Source: a virus
Virus record (IMG/VR): IMGVR_UViG_3300035138_000104
Span: 1 to 60,599 of that record
DNA length: 60,599 bases
Reading direction: 5' to 3' (one strand)
In this document: positions 25,315 to 41,101 of the stretch, piece by piece
How positions within the stretch are numbered: the first letter of the stretch is position 1
Layout of the letters: every line of letters starts with the position of its first letter
Translations under genes and position numbers: made by a program
The notes under the pieces: generated by a model
Told to the model about the DNA's origin: nothing
The model's input: only the letters and a program-made list of their open reading frames with translations
Databases searched by the model: none

Positions 25315-25797
25315 TTAAGTTCCTGTACCTGCATCTGTAATTCTTACACGGATAAGCTGTCCATTAGATCCCTTATCGAGAGCAAACCCGAATTCTTGAT
25401 AACCATCAACCTTTGTCATTACCTGTCCAGGTGTCGCTAATACAAGAGCTACTCTTGCACCTCTTAATATTGCGCCAGAGCATTCCATATATATGACTGC
25501 TCCTTCACCTGCTATCTCAACAACATCGCCAACGGCTGAGGTATTGTTTTTTGTTCTTGCAACCTTAGCACCAAAAATAATATCGTTATTTCCAGTTCTT
25601 TTACCTATGATAGGTAAACCAGCTGCATCATTCGCACCCAAGTCTTTTAATAATACACCTTCACCTGCCAGTAATGTATTCCCTTCAGTGTCCTGTGGAT
25701 CATACCTACAAGATAATACAAATGGGTTAGGATTTGTTTGAAGGTCTAATTGACCAGGATAAGCGGTTGGACTGAATTGATTTGTGTATAAACTCAT
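25315..25797 (-). CDS. Head decoration/cement-like protein
   Basis: 160 aa, Gly/Ala-rich, sitting between the scaffold-like gene and the capsid gene. Confidence 0.45.
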   Translation of the reverse strand: MSLYTNQFSPTAYPGQLDLQTNPNPFVLSCRYDPQDTEGNTLLAGEGVLLKDLGANDAAGLPIIGKRTGNNDIIFGAKVARTKNNTSAVGDVVEIAGEGAVIYMECSGAILRGARVALVLATPGQVMTKVDGYQEFGFALDKGSNGQLIRVRITDAGTGT

Positions 25798-26861: not shown

Positions 26862-26928
26862 TTTCGCCTCTTTTAATTTAATCTAATTTCAATATATAAT
26901 ATATTTTACGCTTAATGAAACAAAACTG

Positions 26929-26957
26929 TTGACATTGCAACTTCGTAATATTATAAT
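26929..26957 (+). promoter_or_regulatory. Perfect-consensus sigma70 promoter of the plus-strand operon
   Basis: TTGACA (26929-26934), exactly 17 nt, TATAAT (26952-26957). GAAGGAAG SD, then ATG at 26990. Confidence 0.8.
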
Positions 26958-26989
26958 GTTCTTATATTAAAATATTGAAGGAAGTAAAC

Positions 26990-27145
26990 ATGGCATTTGA
27001 TTATATTAATTTATTGATTAAAGATGAAATCTTATATGTTAAAATACTTGAGAAATATTTTGAAGAAAAAAAACATAATAGGAAAATAACTAAAATTGAT
27101 ATTGTCGAAAGATTATTAAGAAAAGGATTGGAAAATGAAAAATAA
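26990..27145 (+). CDS. Small protein (51 aa)
   Basis: First ORF after the consensus promoter and SD. Its stop overlaps the next start. Confidence 0.55.
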   Translation: MAFDYINLLIKDEILYVKILEKYFEEKKHNRKITKIDIVERLLRKGLENEK

Positions 27146-27389
27146 ATCAATACCACCTAAACCAATCCCAACTCCAATTAGAAAAGTTAATGAAGGATTT
27201 AATTTCAATTGGATTAGAGCATTTATTAAAAAAATAACCACTCCAAAATCTAAAAGAAAATTAGTATCTGTCAAAGAAGTAAAAGAGATTTATAAAGGAT
27301 TTTCCAAAAATCAGCTTATAAGAGTAATAATCCGACTATCTCAAGAAAATGCCATGTTAAGATATAAAAAAGGAATGATAAGAAAATGA
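27135..27389 (+). CDS. Basic small protein (84 aa)
   Basis: Translationally coupled ORF. The N terminus is Lys/Pro-rich. Confidence 0.6.
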   Translation: MKNKSIPPKPIPTPIRKVNEGFNFNWIRAFIKKITTPKSKRKLVSVKEVKEIYKGFSKNQLIRVIIRLSQENAMLRYKKGMIRK

Positions 27390-27559
27390 TCAAATATTTT
27401 TTAAAAAGGCAAAACGATGCCGAATTTAAAGAAGTTGCCAGATCTGAATATCTTCATCATCAAAAACAAGCTGGATATTATGTTGGTAACATGATATTAC
27501 GCAGCTTCCATGATAGAGACCAAAATATATCAGGCCAGGCAAAGGAAATTAAAAAATGA
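27386..27559 (+). CDS. Small protein (57 aa)
   Basis: ATGA overlap with the upstream stop. It is below the track cutoff. Confidence 0.5.
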   Translation: MIKYFLKRQNDAEFKEVARSEYLHHQKQAGYYVGNMILRSFHDRDQNISGQAKEIKK

Positions 27560-27645
27560 AAGATAACACCGCCTTTGCAATTTTTATTATAGTTATGTTT
27601 ATCATAGCTGTTTTATTATTATTTTTAGCAAAAATATTATTTTAA
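27556..27645 (+). CDS. Hydrophobic mini-protein (29 aa)
   Basis: ATGA overlap. MKDNTAFAIFIIVMFIIAVLLLFLAKILF is a single TM helix. Confidence 0.4.
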   Translation: MKDNTAFAIFIIVMFIIAVLLLFLAKILF

Positions 27646-27657
27646 GGAGAAATAAAA

Positions 27658-27957
27658 ATGAAAGCAATCAAAATTGATAAATACCAAAAAGTAGGTGACT
27701 TGGAATATTCAATAAAACTCAATGTAAAGTTAACATTTTGGCTAGCCGTGAAATTACGTATCGCCGGTATTTATAATCTTTTAGACGCAGAAGAACATAA
27801 ACCAATCCATAAACAAACAAATATATATCATAATGCCAATAGAATTGATACTTCTAATTTAAAATCTGGACAAGCAATTAGTAATGATTCAGAATTAAAA
27901 TTGGCTAAAAAATTAGAAAAAGACTTATTAAATAAAAGAGGAAGAAGATTCAAATAA
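27658..27957 (+). CDS. Hypothetical protein (99 aa)
   Basis: AAGGAG lies 8 nt upstream. Its 3' end overlaps the 3' end of the convergent gene 27950..28639 by 8 bp. Confidence 0.6.
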   Translation: MKAIKIDKYQKVGDLEYSIKLNVKLTFWLAVKLRIAGIYNLLDAEEHKPIHKQTNIYHNANRIDTSNLKSGQAISNDSELKLAKKLEKDLLNKRGRRFK

Positions 27958-28639
27958 ATCTAACTTTCAAAGGTTTTTCAAATCCATAGACTGGCCTTCT
28001 GGAAAACATATAATTCCCTGAATAATCTGTAATCACATAAGAAAGATTCTTATAGCAAAAAATAGACTTATATTCTATATCAAAATCATTAAACTTATGA
28101 ACTAATTCATCTAATACGAATATGCAATTACTCTCAGTCATTGCGATTAAAGTATATCCTTTAGATTTAGCCATGGTTTTTAATGCCAAAGCAGAACAAC
28201 CAAAATTACTATTTTTCTTGGCTATCATGTTCATGAAAGGTGGAATTGTAGGGTTATATTCACAAATAAGCACTCTGGGGCGTGATTTTAAGTCCTTTAG
28301 TATAAAATAATCATTTCCGTCTATATCAATGCTTAGAAGGTCAATTTTAGTGTATCTGTTGATAATATCCGCATTCTTGACCCATTCATTGACAGCAATA
28401 CAATCATACCATCTAATATTACGTTCCAATTCATCAAACTTTTTTTTATTGCCTTCTATTAGAATGGCTTTCCATCCATTACGATATAAATTACAAACAT
28501 TAGAATAATGAACGCCATCCCATGAACCGAGATCAATACATACATTATGCCTTATTTTTATAATTTGAAATATCTTGGCGATTATGCCATCTTCCCCGAA
28601 TTGAGAATAAACATTAAATCCAAAATCTGATAATTTCAT
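27950..28639 (-). CDS. SAM-dependent methyltransferase (FkbM-like)
   Basis: 229 aa. YSQFGEDGII...CIDLGSWDG N-terminal pattern, then ...LSIDIDGNDYFIL. Confidence 0.55.
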   Translation of the reverse strand: MKLSDFGFNVYSQFGEDGIIAKIFQIIKIRHNVCIDLGSWDGVHYSNVCNLYRNGWKAILIEGNKKKFDELERNIRWYDCIAVNEWVKNADIINRYTKIDLLSIDIDGNDYFILKDLKSRPRVLICEYNPTIPPFMNMIAKKNSNFGCSALALKTMAKSKGYTLIAMTESNCIFVLDELVHKFNDFDIEYKSIFCYKNLSYVITDYSGNYMFSRRPVYGFEKPLKVRFI

Positions 28640-28643
28640 TTAT

Positions 28644-30311
28644 TTATCCCTCATAATCTAATAATTTTAATTCATTTTTTAATAATTTTTTATTACAGTT
28701 AAAATAATTTTCTACATCTTTAATATCGATATCCAATTCTTCAGAACATTCTTTTATATCTTTTACCCATTTATTTAATCGTGCCATTTCGATGTTAAAC
28801 TTTTTCATAAACTCTTGATTTATCTTACAATGAATATTTCCATTTTTATAAGCTCGGACTCGCATGAATTCTTTATCAAGCAACTTGTCATAATAAAAAA
28901 TATTTTCTTCACCTGGTTGCCATTCAAAATTAAAACTGCTCTCAATATTTTCAAACCCTAAATTATTAGCAACTGTTGAAATATCATTTATGAAAGTATG
29001 TACATCCTTATAAAGTCCGTTTGAATAATCATAGCTTCTATACCCAGATTCATCAAAACAAGAATATCTTCTAAATACTAATCTATAATCTAATTTAAAA
29101 TGAGTTTGTTTAAATTTCTGAAATCTCCATCCATCTTCAACTAACTTCTTATTAGATTTATAAAGTCTAATATTTTCTTTATCTGCCATTTCAAAATATA
29201 CATCCTTAAGCTGTTCATCTATATATATATTTGCATTCTTTAAAACCCATATAATTAAAGCGTAAGCATTTTGTCTTGTAAAATCAATATTAGTTTGACT
29301 ATGTAATTTATCTAAAATAATTTTTCGACTTTTTGATGTTAATTTTTCAGTAATTTTATTTAAATTATCAAATAATTCTTTCCAATATAGATTTTTTAAT
29401 CCTTTTATTTTTTCTTTCAATCCTGATTTTAGGTTGCCTAAATTAACTCCCATTTCTTTAAATAGTTCAGCACCTATATTTTCAAGTTGTTTATAAGTAT
29501 TCAATAATTTTTCTAAATCTTTTTGATACAATTCTTCTAATGCTTCAATTATATTGCCTTGAATTAATTGTTTAATATTTTCTTTTTTCTCTTGTTCAGT
29601 TTTATAATTCCAATCCTTTTTTTTATCAGCATTTATCTTAAAATTTTCTTCAAACCAGATGTCAAATGGATCAGTTTTTTCTTTTTTGAAATCTATTTTT
29701 ACTATATCTATTTTAGCCCTTGATTCTCGATATTCAGAATTTAAAAAATCATCTGAATAAATAATTTGATATTTATTATCTTTAATTTTCCCGACATCGT
29801 CTACATATTTATTTAGTCTCTTATTTAATATATTTAATATTTCTTGATCCTCTTTCCAACGTTCAGGAATTATCAAATATATTACTTTACAATTAGCTTC
29901 TTTAAGAATTTTTAAAGTCCATTCTTTAAACTCTTTATAAGGCGGATTACAAAAAATAACATCAACTTTTTTATCAATTAATGTTTGCTTTAAAAAATCC
30001 GTTCCTATTATAATTATATCACTTGGCATACTATCGATTAATATTTTTGATTTTTCAATAGCAAATTTATCTATATGAGTTTTCGATGTGTATTCATCTT
30101 TTGGTTTTGGAAATAAATCTTCAAAAAGTTGAAAAACATTTCCATTTCCTGCTCCGATATCTAGCATAGAAAAATTTTCAACCATCCCTGTATAATCTTT
30201 TTTATCTTTAATATAATCATAAAAAATTGTTTCAATCATTCTTTTCGTTGTTGGATACCACTCAAAATCTTCATTATTTTCTTTTAATTTAAATAATAAA
30301 TCCTGCGTCAT
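28644..30311 (-). CDS. Amino (N6-A/N4-C) DNA methyltransferase with a long uncharacterised C-terminal region
   Basis: 555 aa. Motif I MLDIGAGNGNV and motif IV FCNPPY lie in the first ~150 aa. No motif is recognised in the remaining ~380 aa. Confidence 0.7.
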   Translation of the reverse strand: MTQDLLFKLKENNEDFEWYPTTKRMIETIFYDYIKDKKDYTGMVENFSMLDIGAGNGNVFQLFEDLFPKPKDEYTSKTHIDKFAIEKSKILIDSMPSDIIIIGTDFLKQTLIDKKVDVIFCNPPYKEFKEWTLKILKEANCKVIYLIIPERWKEDQEILNILNKRLNKYVDDVGKIKDNKYQIIYSDDFLNSEYRESRAKIDIVKIDFKKEKTDPFDIWFEENFKINADKKKDWNYKTEQEKKENIKQLIQGNIIEALEELYQKDLEKLLNTYKQLENIGAELFKEMGVNLGNLKSGLKEKIKGLKNLYWKELFDNLNKITEKLTSKSRKIILDKLHSQTNIDFTRQNAYALIIWVLKNANIYIDEQLKDVYFEMADKENIRLYKSNKKLVEDGWRFQKFKQTHFKLDYRLVFRRYSCFDESGYRSYDYSNGLYKDVHTFINDISTVANNLGFENIESSFNFEWQPGEENIFYYDKLLDKEFMRVRAYKNGNIHCKINQEFMKKFNIEMARLNKWVKDIKECSEELDIDIKDVENYFNCNKKLLKNELKLLDYEG

Positions 30312-31111
30312 TTATTTAACTCCATTTGATGCTTAAGATTTGATATATTTGTGCCTTCAGTTGAAATATAAGTATCAACTGCATGTTTTAAATTATGCTG
30401 CTTTTCTCTAAGATTTCTAAAATCCTGAGAAAGTATTTCATGTTCTTTTTCTAAACGCAAATAATCATCTATCAATTTATTGAGTAACTCAAAACCATGG
30501 TAAAATGGGATTGTCTTAATTTGCCAATTCTCCCAAATCCAATCTATCTTATAAGTAAGTTGATGTGTTTCACTTAAAACATTACAGAATTTATCCTTAT
30601 ATTTATCAAACTTTTTATCAATATGATGGAATTGAACCTGGATATTATCAATTACTAACTGTAAGTTATTTTTAATTATATCGTCTAAAATATAATATTC
30701 AGCCCCTTCCACATTAAGTTTAAGCAGATCTATTTTTGTAATCTCATTTTCTTTAAAAAATTCACTTAATTTTTTCATTTCCACATAGAAAGCACTCTCT
30801 AAGTCTACTCGAAAGATTGATGAAGAATCATCTTTTAATTGTATAGGTGTCAACTCTTCTTTATTATGTAATCCAAAATTATATAAATGGATTTTATTAT
30901 TCTCTGCAAACTTATCACATAATAAGTTAAAAAAATCTGGAATAGGCTCAAAAGCATAAATATTACATTTATATTTACTATATATTTTTTCAATAAATTC
31001 ACCTTTATACGCCCCTACATCAAAAACAATGGAATCTTCATTCAATGGATAATCAAGTCTTAATGTGTTATTTCCATCAAAAATATCATTCCATATATAA
31101 AATTTGCCCAT
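30308..31111 (-). CDS. FkbM-family methyltransferase
   Basis: 267 aa. FDVGAYKGEF and LNVEGAEYYIL patterns. Confidence 0.6.
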   Translation of the reverse strand: MGKFYIWNDIFDGNNTLRLDYPLNEDSIVFDVGAYKGEFIEKIYSKYKCNIYAFEPIPDFFNLLCDKFAENNKIHLYNFGLHNKEELTPIQLKDDSSSIFRVDLESAFYVEMKKLSEFFKENEITKIDLLKLNVEGAEYYILDDIIKNNLQLVIDNIQVQFHHIDKKFDKYKDKFCNVLSETHQLTYKIDWIWENWQIKTIPFYHGFELLNKLIDDYLRLEKEHEILSQDFRNLREKQHNLKHAVDTYISTEGTNISNLKHQMELNK

Positions 31112-31827
31112 TAATATTCACCCCACTTATCATTAAATATAAGTTTCCCTTTCCTGATAAACTCTTGCTCTTGATCCCATAAAAACTTATTTTGTGTATG
31201 ATATTCCCTATTTATTGGACAATGCCACAAATGAATATGATTTATTGAGCGATCAAATATAATTTTATTTCCATATTTTTCCAATCTCAAATTTATACTT
31301 TTATCTTCCGCAGCATACCCCAAATAATATTCGCTCCATCCTTTTATATCAATAACAGACTGAGTATGGAATAAGCCTATTCCATGAGCTTCACCTGTTG
31401 GATGCTGTTTAAACTTATCAGCAATGATTAACAAATCATCATAATTACCTGAATAATATTCCATAGGCATTGCTATATTGCGAGGAATCACCCGAACCGG
31501 TTTATTCTGTATATGTGAAATAATTCGTTTAATATAATCCTTTGGATAAACAAGGTCTATATCTGAAAAACAAAAATAATCATAATCCTTTAAATAATAT
31601 TTCACCATATAATTCATTAAAAGTGATTTATTAAAGTATTTATTATAAGGTTTATGAATATAAACAATTTTATCATGATCAATAATATCAATATCTTCTT
31701 TAGATGCATTTAAGATAAATATCTTATCAGCTTGTAATAAAATAGAATTTAATGAGCAATTGAAGCGTCTCATTGCATTAGGAAGGGAATCTATTTTAAA
31801 GTTTATAACATAAAGTATTGGTATCAT
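31111..31827 (-). CDS. GT-A fold glycosyltransferase (GT2 / beta-4-GalT-like)
   Basis: 238 aa. FSDIDLVYP (DxD) and GWSEYYLGYAAEDKSINLRL (a WGxEDxD-like region). Confidence 0.55.
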   Translation of the reverse strand: MIPILYVINFKIDSLPNAMRRFNCSLNSILLQADKIFILNASKEDIDIIDHDKIVYIHKPYNKYFNKSLLMNYMVKYYLKDYDYFCFSDIDLVYPKDYIKRIISHIQNKPVRVIPRNIAMPMEYYSGNYDDLLIIADKFKQHPTGEAHGIGLFHTQSVIDIKGWSEYYLGYAAEDKSINLRLEKYGNKIIFDRSINHIHLWHCPINREYHTQNKFLWDQEQEFIRKGKLIFNDKWGEY

Positions 31828-32741
31828 TTTTTATATTTTTTATACTCTTTCATCTGTTCTTTGGTAAGCCCCTTATTCCAAGCAGTTAATCCTCTATAAT
31901 TTCCTCTACCTCTTTTCCATCCCATTTTTATATAATAATCTAATTCTTCTATTTTAATTATCATGTCAATATTATCTTTATAAATCCATCTTCTATTTTT
32001 ATTTTTAATTTTTAATCTAGCTATTGTTTTTTCTGAATGATGTTTACCATACATATGATTATTTTTTCCACTATTGGACAAACTATTTTTAAAATTAGCC
32101 AATAAAGAATGACCTCGTCGCCAACCTTGATCAATATATTCTTTTAATTCATTTTTTTTTATATATTTTTCCTTATCGTTTTTATTAATACATATTAATT
32201 TTTTCTTAGCATTGCTTATATTCTTTCTATGTTCTTTTGAAAATTTTTTTCCTTTAAAATAACCTATATGCCCCATCAAAGCTTTACTTATCTTTTTTCT
32301 TGATTCTGAATATTTTCTCATATGATTGTTGTCGCCTCTGATTTTATCGCCTTTCCCATAATTAGGATTATTTTTACCTTTATTACTTAATTTTCCTTCT
32401 TTAAATAATTTCTTTAGTGATTCACTATTTTTTTTATTATGTTCTTTAGTTTTTGGGATTCCTTTTAATAAATCACCTATACCTTCACCGCCTTTGGTTA
32501 TATTATAGCCATTAGGGGAAATACTATTATAATATTTAATCCAGCCTTTCTCTCTTTCATCTAATATAGTTTTATTTAATATATTATTTTCTAATATATC
32601 TTTTTTAAAATTTTCCTTTCCATATTTTTTAATGGCTAATTTAATTAATTTCCCAGAACCATAATAATTATTATTATTTTTAGAATCTTGCCCTATATAT
32701 ATTTTCCCATTTATTAAATTAGTTGTTTTATAAATTATCAT
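31824..32741 (-). CDS. GIY-YIG homing endonuclease with NUMOD3-like repeats
   Basis: 305 aa. IIYKTTNLINGKIYIGQ...YYGSG at the N terminus, then repeated GKNNPNYGK and GKNNHMYGKHHSEKT motifs. Confidence 0.8.
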   Translation of the reverse strand: MIIYKTTNLINGKIYIGQDSKNNNNYYGSGKLIKLAIKKYGKENFKKDILENNILNKTILDEREKGWIKYYNSISPNGYNITKGGEGIGDLLKGIPKTKEHNKKNSESLKKLFKEGKLSNKGKNNPNYGKGDKIRGDNNHMRKYSESRKKISKALMGHIGYFKGKKFSKEHRKNISNAKKKLICINKNDKEKYIKKNELKEYIDQGWRRGHSLLANFKNSLSNSGKNNHMYGKHHSEKTIARLKIKNKNRRWIYKDNIDMIIKIEELDYYIKMGWKRGRGNYRGLTAWNKGLTKEQMKEYKKYKK

Positions 32742-33286
32742 TATTTTGCGACCAATAAATCAGATTTAAATAATAATTCATCTTTTCTGTAAGAATCTTC
32801 ATATATGAATTCAAAATATGGATCAATTTTCATCAATTTTGATTTGATATCAGATAAATCAAAATCACAATTTTCAGATTTTTTCCAACATCTTAGATCA
32901 TCTATTATTATTATATCACCTTTTTCATAAAATTTGGAAATAATCTCTAATTCATCCATTAAAGGATTAGGTTTTTCTCCATAAACAGTTGTGCCTCCAC
33001 TATCATGTGCATCTAAAAAATATGTTATTTTAAAAGAAGAATAAATCCTATATTTTGAAATTATATTTCCTAATAATTTAGTAGAATCTCCAAGAAGAAT
33101 ATCAACTTTAATATTATGATGAAATCTTTTTTTACAAGTTATATATAATTGAGTTGATAATTCTATAGAATGTATTCTATTAAATTTAGAATCCAAAGCT
33201 GCTTGAATTCCGTCTCCAATTAAACTCCCAGTCTCCACAAACACATCATTTTTATACTTACTTAATATTTCACTATTTATTGGCAT
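32741..33286 (-). CDS. Hypothetical protein (possible methyltransferase-like fold)
   Basis: 181 aa. VETGSLIGDG Gly-rich loop and IIIIDD. The resemblance is weak. Confidence 0.35.
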   Translation of the reverse strand: MPINSEILSKYKNDVFVETGSLIGDGIQAALDSKFNRIHSIELSTQLYITCKKRFHHNIKVDILLGDSTKLLGNIISKYRIYSSFKITYFLDAHDSGGTTVYGEKPNPLMDELEIISKFYEKGDIIIIDDLRCWKKSENCDFDLSDIKSKLMKIDPYFEFIYEDSYRKDELLFKSDLLVAK

Positions 33287-33920
33287 TATTTTTCTCCTTT
33301 CTTAAAATAAATGATACTCTCGTACCTCTTATATAATAAGCCTCATATAAAGCCTTGTTTTCTTCTATTATCTGATAAATAGCTTTTTGAACACCATCCA
33401 TCAATGTATCATGCCATATAATGACTTTTGGGTTAGATTTTAAGGCGTTTATAGAATCCACATAACAAAACTCATAATTATGCCTACCGTCAATATACCA
33501 GGCATCAATTGGGTAATATGGTGAAAAATCAAAATCTTTTGAGTTTCCAAATAATTGAGTATAAGTAAATTCGCATCGTTCACCTACTTTTCCTTCTGGT
33601 TTTTCACTATTCCAATTTAAATAGACATCTTTAGTTTCATCATATCTGACCGGTAAATCAAGTGAATATACTTGTTTACCTTGCATAGCATTACAAATAA
33701 TTCTAGTCCCCTCTCCTAAGTGAGTTCCTATCTCACAAAATGACTGAGGATTTACTTCCCTAATTATTCCATGTAAAGCCAAATAATCCTCTTTAAAGCC
33801 TTCACATCCCATGAAATCCCTATATATTAAAGCATCATGCATATATTTATCAAAATAGCTTAATGATAATAATTCAAAATATTTTGGGTTTATATTAATA
33901 TATTTTTGTCTATTATCCAT
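33273..33920 (-). CDS. Class I SAM-dependent O-methyltransferase-like protein
   Basis: 215 aa. FCEIGTHLGEGT (motif I) and DGRHNYEFCYVD...IIWHD. Confidence 0.5.
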   Translation of the reverse strand: MDNRQKYININPKYFELLSLSYFDKYMHDALIYRDFMGCEGFKEDYLALHGIIREVNPQSFCEIGTHLGEGTRIICNAMQGKQVYSLDLPVRYDETKDVYLNWNSEKPEGKVGERCEFTYTQLFGNSKDFDFSPYYPIDAWYIDGRHNYEFCYVDSINALKSNPKVIIWHDTLMDGVQKAIYQIIEENKALYEAYYIRGTRVSFILRKEKNNANK

Positions 33921-34294
33921 TATTTTTCTTTTATTTCATAGCCAATAATATTTTCTGCTATATTTTCAGATATTTTAATTAATACATTAGCCGGTAATTT
34001 ATCTTTTAAATATCCAATAATTTCTTTTTCTAATTCAAAATTTATATCTTCTAGTATTAAAAAAATAGTAGATGTATCCCTATTGACAACAATAGTTATT
34101 GAATCAAACCAATATTGAACCAATACAAAATATGCTATATTATATATAGTGCAGAATTTTGAATTAAATTTTTCATTAAAATTATTAGATAAAATTTCAT
34201 CTTTACAAAAAGTATAAACCTCAATGTTATTTATTTTTATATCAAAATATTTAAAAAATAATTTTTTAATGATTTTTTTTAAAAATTTTACCAT
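33920..34294 (-). CDS. Hypothetical protein (124 aa)
   Basis: ORF in the island gene train with no recognised motif. Confidence 0.6.
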   Translation of the reverse strand: MVKFLKKIIKKLFFKYFDIKINNIEVYTFCKDEILSNNFNEKFNSKFCTIYNIAYFVLVQYWFDSITIVVNRDTSTIFLILEDINFELEKEIIGYLKDKLPANVLIKISENIAENIIGYEIKEK

Positions 34295-34686
34295 TTTTTC
34301 TCCTCTAAAATTTTTGTCGTTGATATATCAGGTGTTCTAGGTAAAATAACAATATCTGGATAATCAAAAGGCTTCATGTTATTTTGCCCAACTGATTTTA
34401 TCCATAAATCCACCATTTGAAGATAAGGTGTCATGTCTAAAGTATCAACTACAATTACTTTATCAGCATATGGCATTACATTATCAATTCTTACAAATAA
34501 AGGATCAATAGGCCTATCCTGCCCTTTTTGAACTTTTACAATATAATCTGTTACAACTGCCACGATTAGATAATCACAATGTTTTCTGCATCGTTTTAAA
34601 AATATTCTATGCCCTTTATGGAATAAATCAAATGTGCCGGTTGTTAATGCTAGTTTCATATCACCCCCATTGTTCAGCCATTGCAT
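34288..34686 (-). CDS. Cytidylyltransferase-family protein (TagD-like)
   Basis: 132 aa. TTGTFDLFHKGH carries the HxGH nucleotidyltransferase signature and is closest to the TagD GTFDLLHxGH form. Confidence 0.7.
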   Translation of the reverse strand: MQWLNNGGDMKLALTTGTFDLFHKGHRIFLKRCRKHCDYLIVAVVTDYIVKVQKGQDRPIDPLFVRIDNVMPYADKVIVVDTLDMTPYLQMVDLWIKSVGQNNMKPFDYPDIVILPRTPDISTTKILEEKKW

Positions 34687-35233
34687 CAGCTATACCCTGA
34701 AATGTTCGGCTTCTATCTTTTGAATTTCTAGGCATTTTGTACCATCCTGAAGTATATCTAAACCCATTTTCTGTTATAATATAAGTTAATTCAACTTCTT
34801 TTGTTTTTTGGAGCAAAGGTAAATTTTTTAACCATAAACAAGTTTTTTTTGAATAATCATGCCCAAAATAATATGGTTGTATAATCTGATTATAATTTGG
34901 TAAATTTGCCATTTTAGATGGTATTGGATTTTCTATGCATATTTTTTCTATATTAGCATTATATAATTTCATAAAAAATGTTTTCGATATTTTAATATTT
35001 TCATTTTGATTTTCTATTTTGTTTAATCTTGATCTATTTCTACATAAATAAGTACATGGAGGATGGGCAACCATTAAATCCCAATCATTATCTAATATTT
35101 CTAAAACATCACTTTTAATATGTTGCCCCGGTATTTCAGTATCTAATAAATCACATGACCAGGCATCATGTCCACGTTTCCTAAAAGCCTCCCTTATAAT
35201 ACCAGAAAACTCACATGCTATTAAAACTTTCAT
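34661..35233 (-). CDS. Short C5-cytosine DNA methyltransferase-like protein
   Basis: 190 aa. IACEFSGIIREAF (FxG loop), HPPCTYL (ProCys motif), CIENPIPS (ENV-like). Confidence 0.5.
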   Translation of the reverse strand: MKVLIACEFSGIIREAFRKRGHDAWSCDLLDTEIPGQHIKSDVLEILDNDWDLMVAHPPCTYLCRNRSRLNKIENQNENIKISKTFFMKLYNANIEKICIENPIPSKMANLPNYNQIIQPYYFGHDYSKKTCLWLKNLPLLQKTKEVELTYIITENGFRYTSGWYKMPRNSKDRSRTFQGIADAMAEQWG

Positions 35234-35838
35234 TTATTTTCCTTTTTCTCAATTCTCCAATCATGCCCATATCTAAACTCACAAAATCGATCTGGTTTGT
35301 GCGGACACGGTAAAGATAAATTGCCTATTTTAGATTTATCCAAAGGGAATAAATATTCAACTGGAAAATGCTTCCCTTTATTTTCATCTTTGCCCTGAAT
35401 ATATTGTTTACGGTATAAACAAGCTGTATTATATTGCCATCTATCCTCTTGCCAGATTTCTTTAAATGGCATGATTTGAACATCCCATGCAAAGATATCC
35501 ACATGAAGTTCATTTATTCTGCTATAATCTAATCGTAAAAAATTAGGATAGAACCAACTTACTAGATGGAATCCCATCAAACGAAATTCATCGCTTAAGC
35601 ATAATAGTTTATCTAAATCCTGCCTTAGTATACCAATATCGCAATCATCGTCATAGGGTATTATTTGCCCCTGTCTTATACTTCCAAGCAATGTGCCATA
35701 ATCAATCCAATATAATATATTATGCTTTCTAAATACGATATCTATAGCAGATAATAGTTTCATAAGATTGTTTTTGCAGCATTCATTTAATGGGAATCCT
35801 TTTTGTATATCGCACTTTTTAGTATCTTTATTACACAT
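35230..35838 (-). CDS. LicD-family phosphotransferase
   Basis: 202 aa. WIDYGTLLGSIRQGQIIPYDDDCDIGI matches the LicD/fukutin-type signature. Confidence 0.7.
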   Translation of the reverse strand: MCNKDTKKCDIQKGFPLNECCKNNLMKLLSAIDIVFRKHNILYWIDYGTLLGSIRQGQIIPYDDDCDIGILRQDLDKLLCLSDEFRLMGFHLVSWFYPNFLRLDYSRINELHVDIFAWDVQIMPFKEIWQEDRWQYNTACLYRKQYIQGKDENKGKHFPVEYLFPLDKSKIGNLSLPCPHKPDRFCEFRYGHDWRIEKKENK

Positions 35839-35848
35839 TTTAAATTGC

Positions 35849-36130
35849 TTATAACCTTATATTTTCTTTTAAGTTATTCAAATTATTAATACAAGACTCT
35901 AACGATCCGTTAAAATTCTTTAATTTGTCACCTAAAACAGTTCCACATCCTTCTGATAATTTGGAGTCTAATTTTTCAGTTGGATATTCTTCAATAATAT
36001 CAGCACATCGTTTTCTTAAAGAATTAATAGCATGATCCAATTTTTCTAAATGCTCACCAATTAAACGCACCTCACGCCCTATTTCATATTCTATTCGTTC
36101 TTTCTCATCAGTTTTTTCTAACTCATACAT
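35849..36130 (-). CDS. Hypothetical helical protein (93 aa)
   Basis: ORF in the island gene train. Confidence 0.6.
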   Translation of the reverse strand: MYELEKTDEKERIEYEIGREVRLIGEHLEKLDHAINSLRKRCADIIEEYPTEKLDSKLSEGCGTVLGDKLKNFNGSLESCINNLNNLKENIRL

Positions 36131-36175
36131 ATTTAATCTCCTAAAAAAAATATATTTTTAACCATTAACAATGGT

Positions 36176-36991
36176 TTATCCCTCAATAAACTCAACTTTA
36201 CTCTCAATATGGCAAGAGTTGCCGTTAAATATTTCAAGTTTACTATAATCAATAACATAGCCATCTAAATATTTATAATTCAAAAACTCCGCAGGTATTC
36301 TTCCGTGCCTATTCTTATTATCCATTTGCACCCGATTTATAGGCAAATTTACAATCTTAGGTTCATCAAAGCCCATCATTAAATATCTAGCATAAGGCAT
36401 TATACGAGCAAAAAAGCCCTCAAGTGTATTGGGGGATCTAAACTCAAACTTCTTAATATAAGGCAGAATAAAGTCCGTCTCATATAAATTAAAATCCAAA
36501 CTGAATGGATAAGTCCAGTCCCCTTCTTCTCCCTCGGTCCAATTCCACAAATTATAATCCGCACCCTTGATTAAAAGCGGCCGGGATATAAATCTATTCT
36601 GTGTATAACAATAAGAAATATTCTTACCGAGCCTTAATGACAAAGTAATTATCTCAGGGCGTTGCTTAAAGAAATCAACCTCTTTACATTGCAAATCAAA
36701 ATCACGAATAAAAACATCATCATCAGTCCCAAATATAACAAGTTCTTTACTTGTATCTATGCAATTAATAACATTCTGTCTAAATGTCACTTGTTTGACA
36801 AACTCAATATTACCCTTACATTCATTTTTAAGCTTATTATATCCAGCTTCAAAACTATCATTAGAATAAGTATAAATAACCTTAATCTCCTGGTTATCAA
36901 AATCATTCCAATGCATTTTCATGGATCTTAATAACAATTCTAATTGACAAGGTCTATTAAAACTAAAAATTATTATATTTGCTTTATTCAT
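36176..36991 (-). CDS. Putative GT-A glycosyltransferase
   Basis: 271 aa. N-terminal IIIFSFNRPCQLELLLRSM and FGTDDDVF. Confidence 0.45.
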   Translation of the reverse strand: MNKANIIIFSFNRPCQLELLLRSMKMHWNDFDNQEIKVIYTYSNDSFEAGYNKLKNECKGNIEFVKQVTFRQNVINCIDTSKELVIFGTDDDVFIRDFDLQCKEVDFFKQRPEIITLSLRLGKNISYCYTQNRFISRPLLIKGADYNLWNWTEGEEGDWTYPFSLDFNLYETDFILPYIKKFEFRSPNTLEGFFARIMPYARYLMMGFDEPKIVNLPINRVQMDNKNRHGRIPAEFLNYKYLDGYVIDYSKLEIFNGNSCHIESKVEFIEG

Positions 36992-37054
36992 TATACAACT
37001 CCAAAAAAATTTAATTTAATAAAATATAATTTAATATAAAGTAAGCCGACAAAA

Positions 37055-37690
37055 TTATATTTTTCTATCTTCTAAGACTATAGAATAATCAAGGCTCTTT
37101 TGCATTATATAAGAAAAGCCTGTCCTCTGTGTTATTTGACGAGGATTCATGCAAAAACTCTTTTTATATTGTTCCTGGATTAAAAAGCTCAATAATACAT
37201 CGTATTGAGTATTAACCTCCTTAAACTGCAATATCTGATTATAGATGCTAGAATTAACGCAATAAGCATGTGTAGTATAACATCTATAAACACGCATTAT
37301 ATCTTTATTATAAATATCGTAATGATGCCCTGAATTAACATTCAAGTTGCCACCAAAATAAAATAAATGCCAATCTCCATTTAATATGAAATCTTTTACC
37401 ATTCCCAATTTTTCTAAAAAAGTATCTTTTATATTTATATCATCTTCAAATATACATACTCTATCAATGCCGTTCTCTTTGCATTGTTCAATAATAGCCA
37501 AATGTGACAATTTACATCCAGCCTCACGATCTTGTAATGTTTGACCGTTATTTACTTTAATGCCTTCAAATATAATATAATCGGATATCCCAATTTTAGC
37601 AAGTTGTTTTTTTGCATGTTCAAGGCGTTCAGCATGTTCAGGGAGATTGATCAAATATACAACTGGAAATAATTGATTAAAATTGAACAT
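37055..37690 (-). CDS. Glycosyltransferase family 25-like
   Basis: ATG at 37690 follows GGAG. VYLINLPEHAERLEHAKKQL, CKLSHLAI, IFEDD. Confidence 0.6.
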   Translation of the reverse strand: MFNFNQLFPVVYLINLPEHAERLEHAKKQLAKIGISDYIIFEGIKVNNGQTLQDREAGCKLSHLAIIEQCKENGIDRVCIFEDDINIKDTFLEKLGMVKDFILNGDWHLFYFGGNLNVNSGHHYDIYNKDIMRVYRCYTTHAYCVNSSIYNQILQFKEVNTQYDVLLSFLIQEQYKKSFCMNPRQITQRTGFSYIMQKSLDYSIVLEDRKI

Positions 37691-37833
37691 TCTTTTTTCT
37701 CCGTATTGATTTAAACTTAATATATTTAAGCCGTCCACAATTTTTACATATCTTAGATTCTTCTATACCTATAATATCTTTCGAAAAATATTTGATTTCG
37801 TTAATTTTTTTACTCCAAACATGTAAACACATA

Positions 37834-38532
37834 TTACCTCTGAGTTTCATTCAACCTATACGCCGAATTATTCTTGCCTATATGCTGAAAATAATTATCG
37901 GTAAAATAAGCAATCTTAAGTCCTTTTCCTGCAACCTGGCAGGCATAATTGAACTCAAAACCGAATATATCTTCTCTAAAGCGCAAATTATTTTCTTTTA
38001 GCTTTTTGACATTGATTAAGCTAGGATTCAAAGTGAACCCTGGAAATGCTGGTCTGCCTAGACTATCAACTGATTTGACATTATAGTCATATTTTATATA
38101 TTTTTTATTGCCTAATTTTAAAGTCTTTTGCCCTATTGCTGTTATATCAGCTTTACGGTGGTATTGGACCTGGACAACATTATCATGCTTATTAAATATC
38201 TGAAACGCAGTTTTAATGAAATTATCAGACTTAACGCACTCCCAATCGTCCTCACATAAGAACAAATAATCATTAGATACTAGATTAAATAAAACATTCA
38301 TAGATTTTGGATGCGACTTATATTCTGTTTTATTCACAAATATTAATGGCTTGCCTAATTTTTTTAATAGTCCCATCATTAAAATAATATCTGGTAATTC
38401 TGAATTATCGTCTATCAATATTATTTCTGATACCAGATCCCATTCCTTAAAGTTCTTCAATAATGAATTGAATGTTTTTAAAAATAAGTTATATCGTTTG
38501 CATGTAATAAAGCCTAATGAAATTTTTAACAT
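37834..38532 (-). CDS. Glycosyltransferase family 2-like
   Basis: 232 aa. ILIDDNS (DxD-type) and LCEDDW. Confidence 0.6.
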   Translation of the reverse strand: MLKISLGFITCKRYNLFLKTFNSLLKNFKEWDLVSEIILIDDNSELPDIILMMGLLKKLGKPLIFVNKTEYKSHPKSMNVLFNLVSNDYLFLCEDDWECVKSDNFIKTAFQIFNKHDNVVQVQYHRKADITAIGQKTLKLGNKKYIKYDYNVKSVDSLGRPAFPGFTLNPSLINVKKLKENNLRFREDIFGFEFNYACQVAGKGLKIAYFTDNYFQHIGKNNSAYRLNETQR

Positions 38533-38858
38533 TATTTTTTATCCTTATTGTCTAATATCTCAATAAGTTCCTCTTGTAATTCTATTATTTCTTTACATTT
38601 AGCCAGCATTTCTTCATCGTCCCTAGTTGTAAAAAATGAACTATCCCTTAAAACATTTCTTATTTCTTCTTCCCTTGATAACTTTATATGATTCCATCTT
38701 TTCCAATCATTTAAAATTAATTTTTTTATCCTACCCCATTTATCTTGTTTTTTGTTATTACTATATAATATATTTCTTATCCTATATGCTACATCAGGAG
38801 TGAATAATAGTAATTTATGTGAAAATTCTTCACTTATTTGTTCTTTGTCTTCTTTCAT
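38532..38858 (-). CDS. Hypothetical protein (108 aa)
   Basis: ORF in the gene train. Its stop overlaps the next start. Confidence 0.6.
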   Translation of the reverse strand: MKEDKEQISEEFSHKLLLFTPDVAYRIRNILYSNNKKQDKWGRIKKLILNDWKRWNHIKLSREEEIRNVLRDSSFFTTRDDEEMLAKCKEIIELQEELIEILDNKDKK

Positions 38859-38872
38859 CCTTTTTCCCCTTT

Positions 38873-39085
38873 TTATTCATCCGTGATCTCGCTAATATCA
38901 TTTTCTTCATCTAATAATAATTCAGCTTCTAAATTTTTATAATAATTAGAATCATATATTTTTTTTGACTTTTCTTTAAATTTTTTTTCAGCTTTTTTAA
39001 TTGCTTCTACATCATTTTTAGCAATGACATAACATCTTACAAAAGACGCCCCCATCCATCCATTTGTCACACAATATACTCTCAT
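38873..39085 (-). CDS. Hypothetical protein (70 aa)
   Basis: ORF in the gene train with GGAG upstream. Confidence 0.6.
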   Translation of the reverse strand: MRVYCVTNGWMGASFVRCYVIAKNDVEAIKKAEKKFKEKSKKIYDSNYYKNLEAELLLDEENDISEITDE

Positions 39086-39105
39086 TTTTTATCTCCTGCT
39101 ATTAT

Positions 39106-39411
39106 TCATAATTTTATTTTTAAAGATGCTGGTACTCCATAAATTTTATCTTCATATAAGTTAAAACAACGTTTATCTAAAATTAAAATTTTATTTTCAA
39201 AAGGATGTTTTTTATAGACATATTTACAGGTTTCAAAAGCATATATTTCTTCATCTTTAATCTTTCGCAAATATTTATCTAATAATTTTCTTTTTAATTC
39301 ATCTTGTTTTCTTAAACTCTTATAAAGTTTAATAGAATCAATCCACGATTGATAATCAAAATAGGTTAAAGTTGTAGCTTCGTTTATTTGATTGCTATTT
39401 ATATTATTCAT
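39106..39411 (-). CDS. Hypothetical protein, paralog of 52915..53268
   Basis: 101 aa. ETCKYVYKKHPFENKILILDK matches ETCKYVYTLHPFEKDKLIILDK in the other copy. Confidence 0.65.
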   Translation of the reverse strand: MNNINSNQINEATTLTYFDYQSWIDSIKLYKSLRKQDELKRKLLDKYLRKIKDEEIYAFETCKYVYKKHPFENKILILDKRCFNLYEDKIYGVPASLKIKL

Positions 39412-39560
39412 AACCCACCTGAGATCATATCATGACAACCATCGCATATTATTATTTTATCACCTGTTGATGGTAAATAATTATTTTTGGTTAATCGATC
39501 TTTTTTGAATATAACTTCACACATTTGGCATTGATATTCATTGTCTTTAGCATTATTCAT
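39408..39560 (-). CDS. Small zinc-ribbon protein (50 aa)
   Basis: ATG at 39560. CQMC...CDGC. It has ATGA-type overlaps with both neighbours and is below the track cutoff. Confidence 0.5.
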   Translation of the reverse strand: MNNAKDNEYQCQMCEVIFKKDRLTKNNYLPSTGDKIIICDGCHDMISGGL

Positions 39561-39765
39561 TATTAATGCCCTCAATTCTTTTTCTTAAAGCAGCAATATC
39601 TTTATATATCTCTGCCAAGTGAAAAGATGATATCCTTCTATATTCTTTCAATATCTCTTCAAAGGGCGGATTAAATAACATAATAGATTTAAGCTGTCTG
39701 TTTTTTTCTTTCGCATCTTCCCAATTTTTATTAAGCTCGTCAAATATTTGTTTTTGTGATTTCAT
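39553..39765 (-). CDS. Hypothetical protein (70 aa)
   Basis: ORF in the gene train. Confidence 0.6.
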   Translation of the reverse strand: MKSQKQIFDELNKNWEDAKEKNRQLKSIMLFNPPFEEILKEYRRISSFHLAEIYKDIAALRKRIEGINNE

Positions 39766-39944
39766 TTTTTTAATTCCTTTAAAAGTTCTTTTGTTATTTT
39801 ATTTCTTTCTTGCAAAACTTCTTTTAATATTTTCATTGACACTTGTATATATATGCTTCCATCATAATCATTACAAACATATATATCTATATTATCACCA
39901 TTAAGTTCAATAAAGTCTTTTTGTGCAGTGTACCATTTGCTCAT
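39762..39944 (-). CDS. Hypothetical protein (60 aa), first gene after leader element copy 3
   Basis: AAGGAGAAAUAAG precedes the ATG at 39944. Confidence 0.6.
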   Translation of the reverse strand: MSKWYTAQKDFIELNGDNIDIYVCNDYDGSIYIQVSMKILKEVLQERNKITKELLKELKK

Positions 39945-39957
39945 CTTATTTCTCCTT

Positions 39958-40036
39958 AAAATAAAAAAGACTTTCTGAAGGATGGGAACTGCGAGCTACC
40001 CATTTAACCCTGTCAAAAAGTCTTTTTCTCGCAGTT
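39958..40036 (-). ncRNA. 5'-flank/apical-loop complementary RNA element, copy 3 (leader of the glycan island operon)
   Basis: RNA sense: AACUGCGAG (40036-40028) is complementary to CUCGCAGUU in the 12-nt loop UAGCUCGCAGUU (39998-39987). Inner stem AUGGG/CCCAU. Outer stem AAAAAGACUUU/AAAGUCUUUUU (40027-40017 with 39974-39964), then UAUUUU. Confidence 0.6.
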
Positions 40037-40043
40037 AATATAG

Positions 40044-40071
40044 ATTATACTGCAATATTTTTATTTGTCAA
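40044..40071 (-). promoter_or_regulatory. Sigma70-type promoter
   Basis: TTGACA (40071-40066), 16 nt, TATAAT (40049-40044). The predicted start is about 40039-40036, at the first nucleotides of element copy 3. Confidence 0.7.
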
Positions 40072-40078
40072 ATATTTT

Positions 40079-41101
40079 TTATAAAATAATCGGTTTTTTA
40101 ACACACCTGCAAAAAAACTCTAATCCTGGTTTTGTCACTGGCGCACCTATAGCAGCCCTACTTTTCCATTTATTATTCTTAACATCCTCCAGAGTATCAG
40201 CATAAACCGAATCATCATTGAACTTGCAAAACTTCTTATGAAGCACGTAATGATTTCCATGCCCCTTGCTTGGATCAGGATATTTCCCGGATGGATCACC
40301 CACCACACGATAATCATCCATTGTCAACCACTGATAAACATGTATACCTGCATCTGTAAATCTGGAAGTCGATAGATCAGAATAGAAAAGCGTTGTTTCC
40401 TGCCTGGCCAAGAATCTAGCCTTTGACTTACTCGTCTCAAACTCTGTCTGTATAGCTTCGATCATCTTTTGTCTATTATAGCCCTCATATGTCATTTTGG
40501 AAACCATTTCTCTCAGCCTCTCAACCTGCTTAGTATCCCAACAGTCCGGATCTAACTCATTAACAATTGACAGTTCCATATTTTTATTATATTGCTCAAC
40601 CATTTGCTGCCTGATATAATCATTAGGAGTATATCGAATACCTAGATCGATTCGTTCTTTATTCAATACACTGTCCATTTCCTTTGATACGCTATCAATA
40701 TTAAAATCAATACCCCTTATTTTATCTTTTGATGTGTTCGCAATATTATCAATAACGGTTTTCATCCTGGAATGTAATTGTCTGGCTTTTTCATTAACAA
40801 TGACAGAAGCTGATAATATATCTTTTGGGATTAATGTCTTATCCTTGATCTTCCATCGTTTAGTATATTTATTAAACTTAGCAAACTTTCTTAACTCATT
40901 AGATACCTTCATATTAAAGACGCCGTATATTTCATCACCCTGAAATACTACACGTCCTTTATTAATAGCATTTATTACATCATTAGTGGAATTATAAAGC
41001 GGTTCTTTGAATAGTTCTAAGATTGGTTCAAAATATGTTTTATAGAAATAATCCCTGAGCTGTTCCTCAATATCTGAATACCATGATTGTTTTATTCGCA
41101 T
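40079..41101 (-). CDS. Head morphogenesis protein, Mu F / SPP1 gp7 family
   Basis: 340 aa. It sits in the portal-proximal head block, and its C-terminal FFCRCV resembles the H.NCRC motif of the family. Confidence 0.65.
   Translation of the reverse strand: MRIKQSWYSDIEEQLRDYFYKTYFEPILELFKEPLYNSTNDVINAINKGRVVFQGDEIYGVFNMKVSNELRKFAKFNKYTKRWKIKDKTLIPKDILSASVIVNEKARQLHSRMKTVIDNIANTSKDKIRGIDFNIDSVSKEMDSVLNKERIDLGIRYTPNDYIRQQMVEQYNKNMELSIVNELDPDCWDTKQVERLREMVSKMTYEGYNRQKMIEAIQTEFETSKSKARFLARQETTLFYSDLSTSRFTDAGIHVYQWLTMDDYRVVGDPSGKYPDPSKGHGNHYVLHKKFCKFNDDSVYADTLEDVKNNKWKSRAAIGAPVTKPGLEFFCRCVKKPIIL

Follow-up and report, generated by a model that had tools for sequence, protein, structure and literature searches.

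A glycosyltransferase and methyltransferase gene island between the MuF-like and scaffold genes of a low-GC myovirus clade: a candidate virion-glycosylation locus

Why would a myovirus with a genome of only 60 kb carry, between two genes for head assembly, a long operon that resembles the machinery of glycan synthesis, and which molecule would the encoded enzymes modify? These questions are raised by the IMG/VR virus record IMGVR_UViG_3300035138_000104 (60,599 nucleotides, analyzed here in full and denoted the window), in which 22 tightly packed minus-strand open reading frames (ORFs; 27950..39944) separate the MuF-like head gene (40079..41101, minus strand; phrog_324 and other minor-head families) from the scaffold gene (25794..26861, minus strand; DUF2213/Pa193_gp24). 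The island takes up about 20% of the genome, and its products include predicted glycosyltransferases (GTs), methyltransferases (MTs) and a LicD-like transferase with a putative cytidylyltransferase (CTase) partner. We propose that these enzymes make a decorated glycan and, tentatively, that this glycan is attached to proteins of the virion.

Comparison with relatives that lack the island confirms the statement of a first-pass annotation of this DNA that the MuF-like and scaffold genes are normally adjacent. The relatives collected from IMG/VR and JGI metagenomes include 27 loci with both genes present and a scaffold at most 40% identical to that of the window; in these loci, the matches to MuF and scaffold are 44-1,837 bp apart (less than 500 bp in 21 of the 27), as opposed to 13.2 kb in the window. 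The island-less relatives L025 and L035 have small inserts of 1.6-1.8 kb at the same junction. The limits assigned earlier (27950-39944) hold for the minus-strand block, but the full insertion spans 26862..40078 and includes a plus-strand cassette (26975..27957); likewise, the genes of the block are indeed co-directional but number 22 rather than about 25. No att-like direct repeats flank the insertion apart from chance AT-rich matches, and a 19-nt perfect inverted repeat proves to be simply the shared ribosome-binding region. No other 12-kb stretch of the genome is as low in GC as the island (26.8% vs 30.3%); given that its GC content at third codon positions is similar to that of the structural genes, it appears to be old and ameliorated to the base composition of the phage.

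All the sampled relatives in which the scaffold is at least 47% identical to that of the window have glycan genes, some of them non-orthologous, at this junction. The junction spans 13.1 kb in a genome that is 96-99% identical (L001/L002), 9.3 kb in a third lineage with 53-76% protein identity (JGI 3300075153, L010, L011, L076), 4.8 kb in L027/L078 and 7.5 kb in L077, and L079 is a fragment with GT-A, MT and GT7 genes. Orthologues are common to the window, L001/L002 and the JGI 3300075153/L010/L076 lineage; the latter lacks the block formed by the LicD and CTase genes and those at 33920, 33273 and 35849, and retains the order GT2, GT25, GT-A, 32741-type MT, GT7, phrog_757 gene, DUF4942 gene, FkbM and FkbM-like gene. 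The island-bearing clade includes members with a major capsid protein (MCP) that is only 53-55% identical. The overall pattern suggests a single acquisition followed by long retention.

The islands of L027/L078 and L077 encode mostly non-orthologous GTs in the form of one protein of 1,041 or 1,079 amino acids with four to five GT domains (Gly_transf_sug, three GT2 domains and a GT7C region), followed by a radical S-adenosylmethionine (SAM) enzyme of the SPASM type (the fused-GT regions are 3712..7834 in L027 and 4895..9470 in L077). SPASM radical-SAM enzymes are best known for peptide substrates. In L077, there are also a separate GT2, an MT and a coiled-coil protein with five transmembrane segments (TMs) encoded directly after MuF. 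Multiple GT domains accompanied by MTs or radical-SAM enzymes are present in all island-bearing relatives sequenced across the junction; thus, the site retains about four GT activities along with modifying enzymes, even where the genes have been replaced by non-orthologous ones.

The "four or five" GTs of the first-pass annotation come down to four GT-A-fold enzymes for which profile, PDB or fold evidence is available. The gene 37834..38532 (minus strand, as for all genes of the 22-ORF block) encodes a GT2-family protein (PF00535, 2e-7, 31.5 bits vs a cut-off of 23.3), with orthologues that are 39-81% identical in relatives. The product of 37055..37738, with a probable ATG start at 37690, belongs to the GT25 family (PF01755, 5e-15; phrog_2835, "glucosyltransferase", 2e-10). 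The protein encoded by 36176..36991 matches no Pfam, PHROG or NCBIfam model; a Foldseek search started with its AlphaFold2 (AF2) model (pLDDT 94.4) identifies SpsA, GnT-I, POMGnT1 and TarP with the probability of 1.0, and two aspartates, D90-D91, are invariant in the family alignment. This GT-A family, for which there is no curated model, comes to light here as a group of about 4,900 sequence clusters (4,913 at E<=1e-3 and 2,873 at E<=1e-30, among 1.84 billion representatives) found in phages, cyanobacteria, Variovorax and others, either stand-alone or as a domain of proteins of up to 1,384 amino acids. The product of 31111..31827 is a GT7/GT2-like (beta-1,4-galactosyltransferase-like) GT-A enzyme that matches structures of beta4GalT1 (3.5e-5); its own Pfam matches are under the cut-off, and an orthologue matches PF02709 (Glyco_transf_7C).

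The LicD-like phosphotransferase and TagD-like cytidylyltransferase recognized by motif in the earlier annotation are both corroborated by profile searches. The protein encoded by 35230..35838 belongs to the LicD/FKRP family of phospho-alcohol (CDP-alcohol-dependent) transferases (PF04991, 5e-16) and is similar to human FKRP (1.6e-10), with the acidic DxD and HxD (HVD) motifs aligned; the match to the NCBIfam model for cholinephosphotransferase Mf1 (5e-16) is under the equivalog cut-off. The product of 34288..34686 is a TagD-like cytidylyl/adenylyltransferase with the HxGH motif (PF01467, 6e-11), the best full-length match being TagD (1coz, 1.3e-10), and the scores for all NCBIfam equivalogs (g3p_cytidyltrns, RfaE domain II) fall far short of the cut-offs. 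The alcohol handled by the pair may be glycerol, ribitol or choline, or the nucleotidyltransferase may act on heptose-1-P instead. The two genes are separated by one gene, 34661; in L001, which lacks 34661, they are directly adjacent, as would be expected of a working pair.

The MTs present a more uneven picture. The earlier estimate of four or five SAM-dependent MTs is reduced to three or four O-methyltransferase-like genes, one with a partial motif and another with weak matches. The protein encoded by 30308..31111 is a clear FkbM-family O-methyltransferase (PF05050, 7e-17; TIGR01444, 1e-20, above the cut-off), and the final gene of the operon, 27950..28639, encodes an FkbM-like protein in which PF05050 (1.4e-6) covers only residues 93-137; this protein shares the FkbM core motif with 30308 and is 74-99% conserved in relatives. 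The gene 33273..33920 encodes a class I SAM MT of the Methyltransf_24 family (PF13578, 9e-6, 26.9 bits vs a cut-off of 26.3), a family found also in other phage glycan islands (L012, L016, L018) and matched by a rhamnosyl O-methyltransferase in a cellular O-polysaccharide cluster (L065). The product of 32741..33286 has no direct Pfam match, and 4 of its 45 homologues match Methyltransf_24; the family profile gives weak but consistent matches to YrrM (1e-3) and COMT (7e-3), and E18, T19 and G20 in the ETGxxxGxG motif as well as D92 and H94 in the DAH motif are invariant, so that this is probably a small O-methyltransferase.

An exact 127-bp terminal direct repeat (1..127 and 60473..60599) shows that the genome that encodes this set has been assembled completely, as a circle of about 60,472 bp; it was also recovered as a Logan contig and a JGI contig. 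It is a myovirus genome of 29.6% GC that encodes terminase, portal, the MuF-like protein, the DUF2213/Pa193_gp24-type scaffold, a decoration protein, a DUF2184-type MCP (24311..25303, minus strand; phrog_264, 8e-43), E217/Pam3-like sheath and baseplate proteins, an M23 peptidase, DnaB, SSB and six tRNAs; no DNA polymerase family is detected in the genome. There is no close relative among 50,697 deposited phage records, and a megablast search of the island against the same set yields no match. The MCP shows 38% identity with its counterpart in Bdellovibrio phage phi1422 and about 24% with those of phages of Proteus, Pasteurella and Aggregatibacter, and these relatives of the structural genes probably point to a Gram-negative host.

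The genome-wide negatives rest on precomputed Pfam assignments that cover almost the entire genome, with the structural genes at 22.9-26.2 kb annotated separately. None of the island proteins contains a TM-like segment; all the products appear to be soluble, and the chemistry would therefore be cytoplasmic. In the complete genome, there is no detectable flippase (Wzx), polymerase (Wzy), ABC exporter, polyprenyl-phosphate transferase or Gtr protein, nor any Pfam family corresponding to the membrane parts of Gtr/Oac-type modules (GtrA flippase, GtrB bactoprenol GT, GtrC or acyltransferase), and no sugar-nucleotide enzyme other than the CTase. The description of the island as a "near self-sufficient kit" was thus overstated, given that neither nucleotide-sugar synthesis beyond the CTase nor a priming enzyme or an exporter is in evidence. 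A well-supported prediction from the gene content is that the encoded enzymes are cytoplasmic and build a short, O-methylated, phospho-alcohol-decorated glycan from host nucleotide sugars. No integrase is detected across the complete genome, a negative that is not absolute because many ORFs are unannotated.

The earlier suggestion that the island has its own promoter and leader RNA is well founded. Between the MuF stop codon and the island, there is a sigma-70-type promoter (40044..40071, minus strand; TTGACA, 16 nt, TATAAT, a 12/12 match to the consensus) followed, before the first gene, by a 66-nt terminator-like hairpin with a U-rich 3' side (39963..40028, minus strand). Perfect TTGACA-N16-18-TATAAT matches occur three times in the 60.6-kb genome, as compared with about 0.2 expected by chance (an estimate from base composition), and two of the three bracket the insertion. 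The promoter is identical in the 96%-identical relative, and the distant relative L027 has a TTGACA box at the same junction, after MuF. The hairpin (free energy -28.1 kcal/mol, z-score -3.2; 0 of 200 shuffled sequences fold as well) is kept in L001 with one substitution, matches no Rfam family by gathering or E-value threshold, and has no second copy elsewhere in the genome; it could terminate the upstream portal-MuF unit, attenuate the island transcripts or stabilize them. In L001, a 700-bp insertion directly after the hairpin (9613..10313) contains a YopX gene and a T-loop-like stretch, GGTTCGATTCC; this stretch was rejected as a tRNA (no ARAGORN call, and in Rfam only a 17-nt fragment of tmRNA at 15.5 bits).

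The second of the bracketing promoters (26929..26957, plus strand, 12/12) has equivalents in L027 and L010 and drives, toward the island, a convergent cassette of five small ORFs (26975..27957, plus strand; 56, 84, 57, 29 and 99 amino acids). These are the only plus-strand genes of the genome, and the last of them overlaps the final gene of the island by 8 bp. None of the five has a family hit; the 84-amino acid protein is very basic (23 K+R vs 4 D+E), and the 29-amino acid peptide (27556..27645) is hydrophobic. Wherever an island-bearing relative is sequenced in this region, homologues of the cassette are found at the corresponding position, and it might encode a regulator or a membrane-active peptide or serve as a transcriptional insulator. 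The third perfect promoter is located at 8780..8753 (minus strand), and 11/12 matches are found at 3766..3795 (minus strand), upstream of the six-tRNA array (3223..3760), and at 46736..46765 (minus strand), preceding a small gene between the terminase and portal genes; the strongest host-type promoters of the genome are these three and the two that bracket the island.

Interspersed with the glycan genes is a set of genes with no evident connection to glycans. The two DNA-methyltransferase-like genes noticed previously are indeed such: 28644..30311 encodes an N6-adenine DNA-methyltransferase-like protein (MTS and DUF4942, NPPY motif; phrog_799), and 34661..35233 encodes a DNA-methyltransferase-like protein with a PPC motif (phrog_757, 1e-50). 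Both are variable cargo, absent from the close relative L001; a homologue of 34661 is present in L010, and the L010-type lineage has a separate N6_N4_Mtase gene and a DUF4942 gene in place of 28644. The gene 31824..32741, overlooked in the first-pass annotation, encodes a GIY-YIG/NUMOD3 homing endonuclease (phrog_314, 1e-28; NUMOD3, 3e-13), that is, selfish cargo; the close relative lacks it at this position and has a different, Seg-like endonuclease elsewhere in its island. Among the six small ORFs at the promoter-proximal end (38532..39944; 60, 70, 55, 101, 70 and 108 amino acids, the 55-amino acid product containing a CxxC...CxxC motif), the sole family match is phrog_11304 for 38873..39085, and the close relative has other genes in place of the ORFs 38532..39411. 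Two further hypothetical genes encode proteins of 93 amino acids (35849..36130, 100% conserved in the close relative) and 124 amino acids (33920..34294, 17% GC).

In the direct comparison with L001, the window additionally contains the two DNA-methyltransferase-like genes, the gene for the homing endonuclease and three small ORFs, and L001 has the YopX gene, the Seg-like endonuclease and about 1.5 kb of hypothetical genes between GT25 and GT-A. The CTase gene and the 32741 gene are only 56% identical between the two, which, in genomes otherwise 97-99% identical, indicates replacement of these alleles, as judged from the sequences. In the scheme preferred here, the DNA methyltransferases and the homing endonuclease would be unrelated cargo at the same permissive site.

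The distribution of the GT-A family provides additional clues. Among viruses, it is found mostly in large aquatic phage contigs; in the 50,697 deposited phage records, it is represented only in a 735-kb megaphage, and LicD is almost absent. In the unrelated T4-like phage L012 (GCA_964520455.1, a 235-kb contig; also L013), a homologue heads an island of at least 10 kb (5998..20798) that starts one DUF7487/Mom-like gene downstream of the gp23 capsid gene and encodes FkbM, two GT10 enzymes, a Caps_synth GT, MTs, Methyltransf_24, GT2, E1_dh/transketolase, an epimerase and DegT. In a 332-kb phage, the homologue lies within an island of GT6, GT4 and MT genes, and elsewhere it occurs alone. A chromosome scan with a 14-sequence alignment of the family identifies it as the N-terminal domain of a 1,166-amino acid GT of Pseudanabaena minima (L065), encoded in a Wzm/Wzt cluster together with the rhamnosyl O-methyltransferase (RMNT_CmcI/Methyltransf_24), a GT2-FkbM fusion, further MTs and an epimerase.

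What, then, would be the acceptor? In the scheme that we propose, the stretch 26862..40078 would be an accessory operon acquired once, at the MuF-scaffold junction, by the ancestor of the low-GC myovirus clade, with about 22 genes transcribed from the host-type sigma-70 promoter. The four GT-A-fold GTs would build a short oligosaccharide from host nucleotide sugars, and the FkbM, Methyltransf_24 and COMT-like enzymes would O-methylate the sugars; the TagD-like enzyme would make a CDP-alcohol, most likely CDP-glycerol, from which the LicD/FKRP-like enzyme would move the phospho-alcohol onto the glycan. The preferred acceptor would be a virion protein, or several of them, that accumulate in the cytoplasm (subunits of capsid, decoration or tail), in parallel with the mycobacteriophage loci for an O-methyltransferase and tandem GTs. 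The order of the reactions, the identities of the sugars and of the alcohol and, above all, the acceptor are what we infer here. In favor of a virion acceptor, we count the solubility of all the parts and the lack of lipid-carrier machinery, the clade-wide retention of the island in an apparently lytic phage, the fused multi-GT enzymes and SPASM partners of the sister islands, and the location of the T4-like island with the GT-A homologue just downstream of the gp23 gene. According to PMC11600133, citing Freeman 2023, the only proven phage systems with several soluble GTs and an O-methyltransferase modify capsid and tail-tube proteins. Glycosylation of virion proteins is slightly favored over remodeling of host lipopolysaccharide (LPS) or O-polysaccharide, although we put its probability at somewhat less than even. 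The wider proposal that a clade of aquatic myoviruses, probably with Gram-negative hosts, maintains a heritable, diversifying virion-glycosylation locus in the head operon, with capsid or tail proteins receiving a methylated oligosaccharide that the LicD/FKRP-like enzyme caps with phospho-glycerol while the glycan is linked to protein, and with the sister phages achieving this by means of a fused four-GT protein and a SPASM enzyme, is more tentative.

Several observations weigh against the virion as the target. Position and co-orientation with virion genes, invoked in the first-pass annotation, do not serve as pointers to it: co-orientation is uninformative because all genes other than the plus-strand cassette are on the minus strand, and the position says little on function because the site also takes unrelated cargo, namely DNA methyltransferases, homing endonucleases and changing small genes. 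Compared with island-less relatives, neither the MCP nor the decoration protein has a longer or more Ser/Thr-rich C-terminus, the window MCP ending 4-5 residues earlier, so that there is no recognizable acceptor tail. A tblastn search of the 50,697 phage records with GT-A, LicD, GT25 and FkbM (GT2 and the GT7-like protein not searched) finds no mycobacteriophage homologue. The perfect host-type promoter, a moron-like feature, could be active early in infection; the GT-A genes of other large phages are mostly located away from head genes; and the Pseudanabaena homologue is a domain of a multi-GT protein from a Wzm/Wzt O-polysaccharide cluster with FkbM and a rhamnosyl O-methyltransferase. Finally, characterized bacterial members of the GT25 and LicD families act on lipooligosaccharide (LOS) or teichoic acid.

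The most serious competing explanation, itself doubtful but by no means negligible, is remodeling of the host envelope: the island enzymes would act at the cytoplasmic face on lipid A-core or on undecaprenyl-PP-linked O-polysaccharide or capsule intermediates that are then exported by the MsbA or the Wzm/Wzt and WaaL of the host, and the altered, or methyl- or phospho-capped, surface glycan would block superinfection or the sticking of progeny to debris. The characterized GT25 enzymes Lic2A, LgtB and LpsA as well as LicD decorate LOS as soluble or peripheral enzymes, and the LOS/LPS pedigree of the two families speaks for this explanation. It fits equally well because the cellular homologues of GT-A, FkbM (as the GT2-FkbM fusion) and Methyltransf_24 (RMNT_CmcI) sit, along with MTs and an epimerase, in a Wzm/Wzt cluster. 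The relatives of the MCP infect Gram-negative hosts, the autonomous sigma-70 promoter would permit early expression, and the presence or absence of the LicD/CTase pair and the allele swaps between close relatives are as expected for adaptation to host strains. Published readings of similar clusters point the same way, favoring modification of the host surface for cyanomyovirus clusters (PMC12801897) and for gut-phage licD and ispD (PMC8008677). However, lysogenic conversion is unlikely with no integrase detected, and a lytic phage would gain little from slow replacement of an existing LPS layer; unlike all proven seroconversion modules, the island has no membrane, flippase or priming parts; the persistence of four to five GT activities in spite of non-orthologous replacement, down to 53% MCP identity, is hard to square with the tracking of variable host acceptors; and the SPASM partners of the sister islands come from a family best known to act on peptides.

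Two other explanations account for the mixed content of the island. Under one of these, which we consider unlikely, the junction is simply a permissive hot spot that tolerates insertions and has gathered diverse genes, small host-takeover genes included, with no joint pathway. The rapid turnover of insertions and deletions between genomes that are 96-99% identical elsewhere, the different homing endonucleases at different positions, the low GC content and the small inserts of L025 and L035 are all in line with this, but the core of GT2, GT25, GT-A, GT7, two FkbM-type and the 32741-type MT genes is collinear and 53-76% identical in the third lineage, GT domains with MTs or radical-SAM enzymes recur in all the relatives sequenced across the junction, and LicD adjoins the nucleotidyltransferase once 34661 is absent. 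Under the other, the GTs would decorate modified DNA bases and, together with the two DNA methyltransferases, counter restriction, for which there is a precedent in phage GTs that glycosylate 5-hydroxymethylcytosine or 5-hydroxymethyluracil DNA (PMC12619734, citing Pyle 2024). The DNA methyltransferases are, however, the most dispensable parts of the island, and, consistent with the earlier statement that enzymes of DNA hypermodification are missing, no thymidylate-synthase-like hydroxymethylase, nucleotide kinase or other base-modifying enzyme is detected in the complete genome. We know of no DNA substrates for the LicD and FkbM families. With no base-activating enzyme found, this explanation is rejected as highly improbable. 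A 250-amino acid ORF (51791..52543, minus strand) considered as thymidylate-synthase-like is M23-like instead; it is one of two Peptidase_M23-type proteins, encoded among the early genes, the other (10117..10596, minus strand) being encoded after the tail genes.

How does the island compare with known systems? Among the closest parallels, the virion-glycosylation loci of cluster O and F1 mycobacteriophages also combine tandem soluble GTs with an O-methyltransferase, rely on cytoplasmic chemistry and are accessory loci of some lineages only (Freeman et al. 2023, as summarized in PMC11600133 and PMC11256854). The present island differs in showing no homology in the four enzymes searched, in its likely Gram-negative host and myovirus morphology, in its larger gene content (four GTs and three to four MTs, joined by the LicD and CTase genes), and in its location inside the head-assembly module under its own sigma-70 promoter; no acceptor tail is seen on its MCP. 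Chloroviruses and mimiviruses, in turn, possess virus-encoded machinery for virion glycans, such as the multidomain protein A064R of PBCV-1, that similarly includes multiple GT-A-type GTs and sugar MTs and works in the cytoplasm without a lipid carrier; the fused multi-GT polypeptides of L027 and L077 are reminiscent of it. However, these are giant viruses of eukaryotes, with no demonstrated homology to the phage genes.

In T4-like cyanomyoviruses (S-SCSM2R, S-SCSM1 and P-SSM2; PMC12801897), LPS clusters or clusters labeled "cell-wall synthesis and modification" share with the island many GTs, GT2 and GT25 among them, a TagD-type cytidylyltransferase and MTs. They belong to aquatic lytic phages, and large aquatic phages of this kind commonly carry the homologous GT-A family. 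They are located in hyperplastic regions of genomes of at least 170 kb and include sugar-nucleotide enzymes, in contrast to a defined head-module junction and no sugar-nucleotide pathway in a 60-kb phage. The licD and ispD insertion of some "Flandersviridae" gut phages (PMC8008677) is likewise a mobile accessory cassette of LicD with a nucleotidyltransferase, but the partner is of the IspD type and the cassette, which has neither GT nor MT genes, is located in the replication module, whereas here a TagD-type partner is embedded in a GT/MT operon. Bacterial ABC-transporter O-polysaccharide clusters, such as that of P. minima, contain the same families (GT-A, GT2, FkbM and Methyltransf_24/rhamnosyl O-methyltransferase); the phage genome has no counterpart of the Wzm/Wzt exporter and the priming transferase that adjoin the cellular homologue, and it also lacks a ligase and sugar-nucleotide enzymes. 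Morons of temperate phages are promoter-bearing insertions between structural genes, and the island resembles them in both respects, having an autonomous, perfect sigma-70 promoter. Nevertheless, it comprises 13 kb and 22 genes, as against the one or two genes of a moron, neither an integrase nor a repressor is detected, and the sole terminator-like hairpin is 5' of the genes, the 3' end meeting the convergent cassette.

Clusters of GT and MT genes in phages are already known and, in aquatic phages, widespread, although, to our knowledge, none has an experimentally known target. What is new here is that the insertion has a fixed place within the head-assembly module of a 60-kb myovirus, that it is bracketed by host-type promoters facing each other and by a conserved antisense cassette, that an FKRP-like LicD is paired with a TagD-like enzyme among four GT-A enzymes, and that the whole clade retains the island, with non-orthologous replacement. 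The clade makes a clean comparative system, with a fixed site, island-less outgroups in which the MuF-scaffold junction is contiguous, and at least five island variants that range from 22 separate genes to one fused multi-GT protein. Should the acceptor be the virion, glycosylation of phage particles would extend beyond actinobacteriophages, which would matter for the stability of the virion, for its adsorption to particles or mucus and for the masking of receptors; such virion glycosylation would have no precedent other than in actinobacteriophages and giant viruses, and no phage particle decorated with a phospho-alcohol would have been described before. Should it be the host envelope, strictly lytic phages would rebuild LPS during infection.

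Two other proteins of this genome deserve mention. Between the portal and MuF genes, 42764..44572 (minus strand) encodes an acidic, all-beta protein of 602 amino acids for which the AF2 model (pLDDT 89) consists of lectin jelly rolls of the ConA/LamG type, resembling the receptor-binding domains of botulinum toxins, the lectin domain of sialidase and carbohydrate-binding modules; its homologues carry PF13385. The protein is only 68% identical in a relative in which its neighbors are 95-99% identical and thus appears to be diversifying. It is absent from the island-less relatives and is found in unrelated phages, once beside a GT9/MT/APS-kinase cluster (L019); a strict co-occurrence with the island is ruled out, given that L027 lacks it and unrelated phages possess it. 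The second is a Kelch/beta-propeller repeat protein of 314 amino acids encoded among the presumed early genes (54071..55015, minus strand), which is unusual for a phage of this size.

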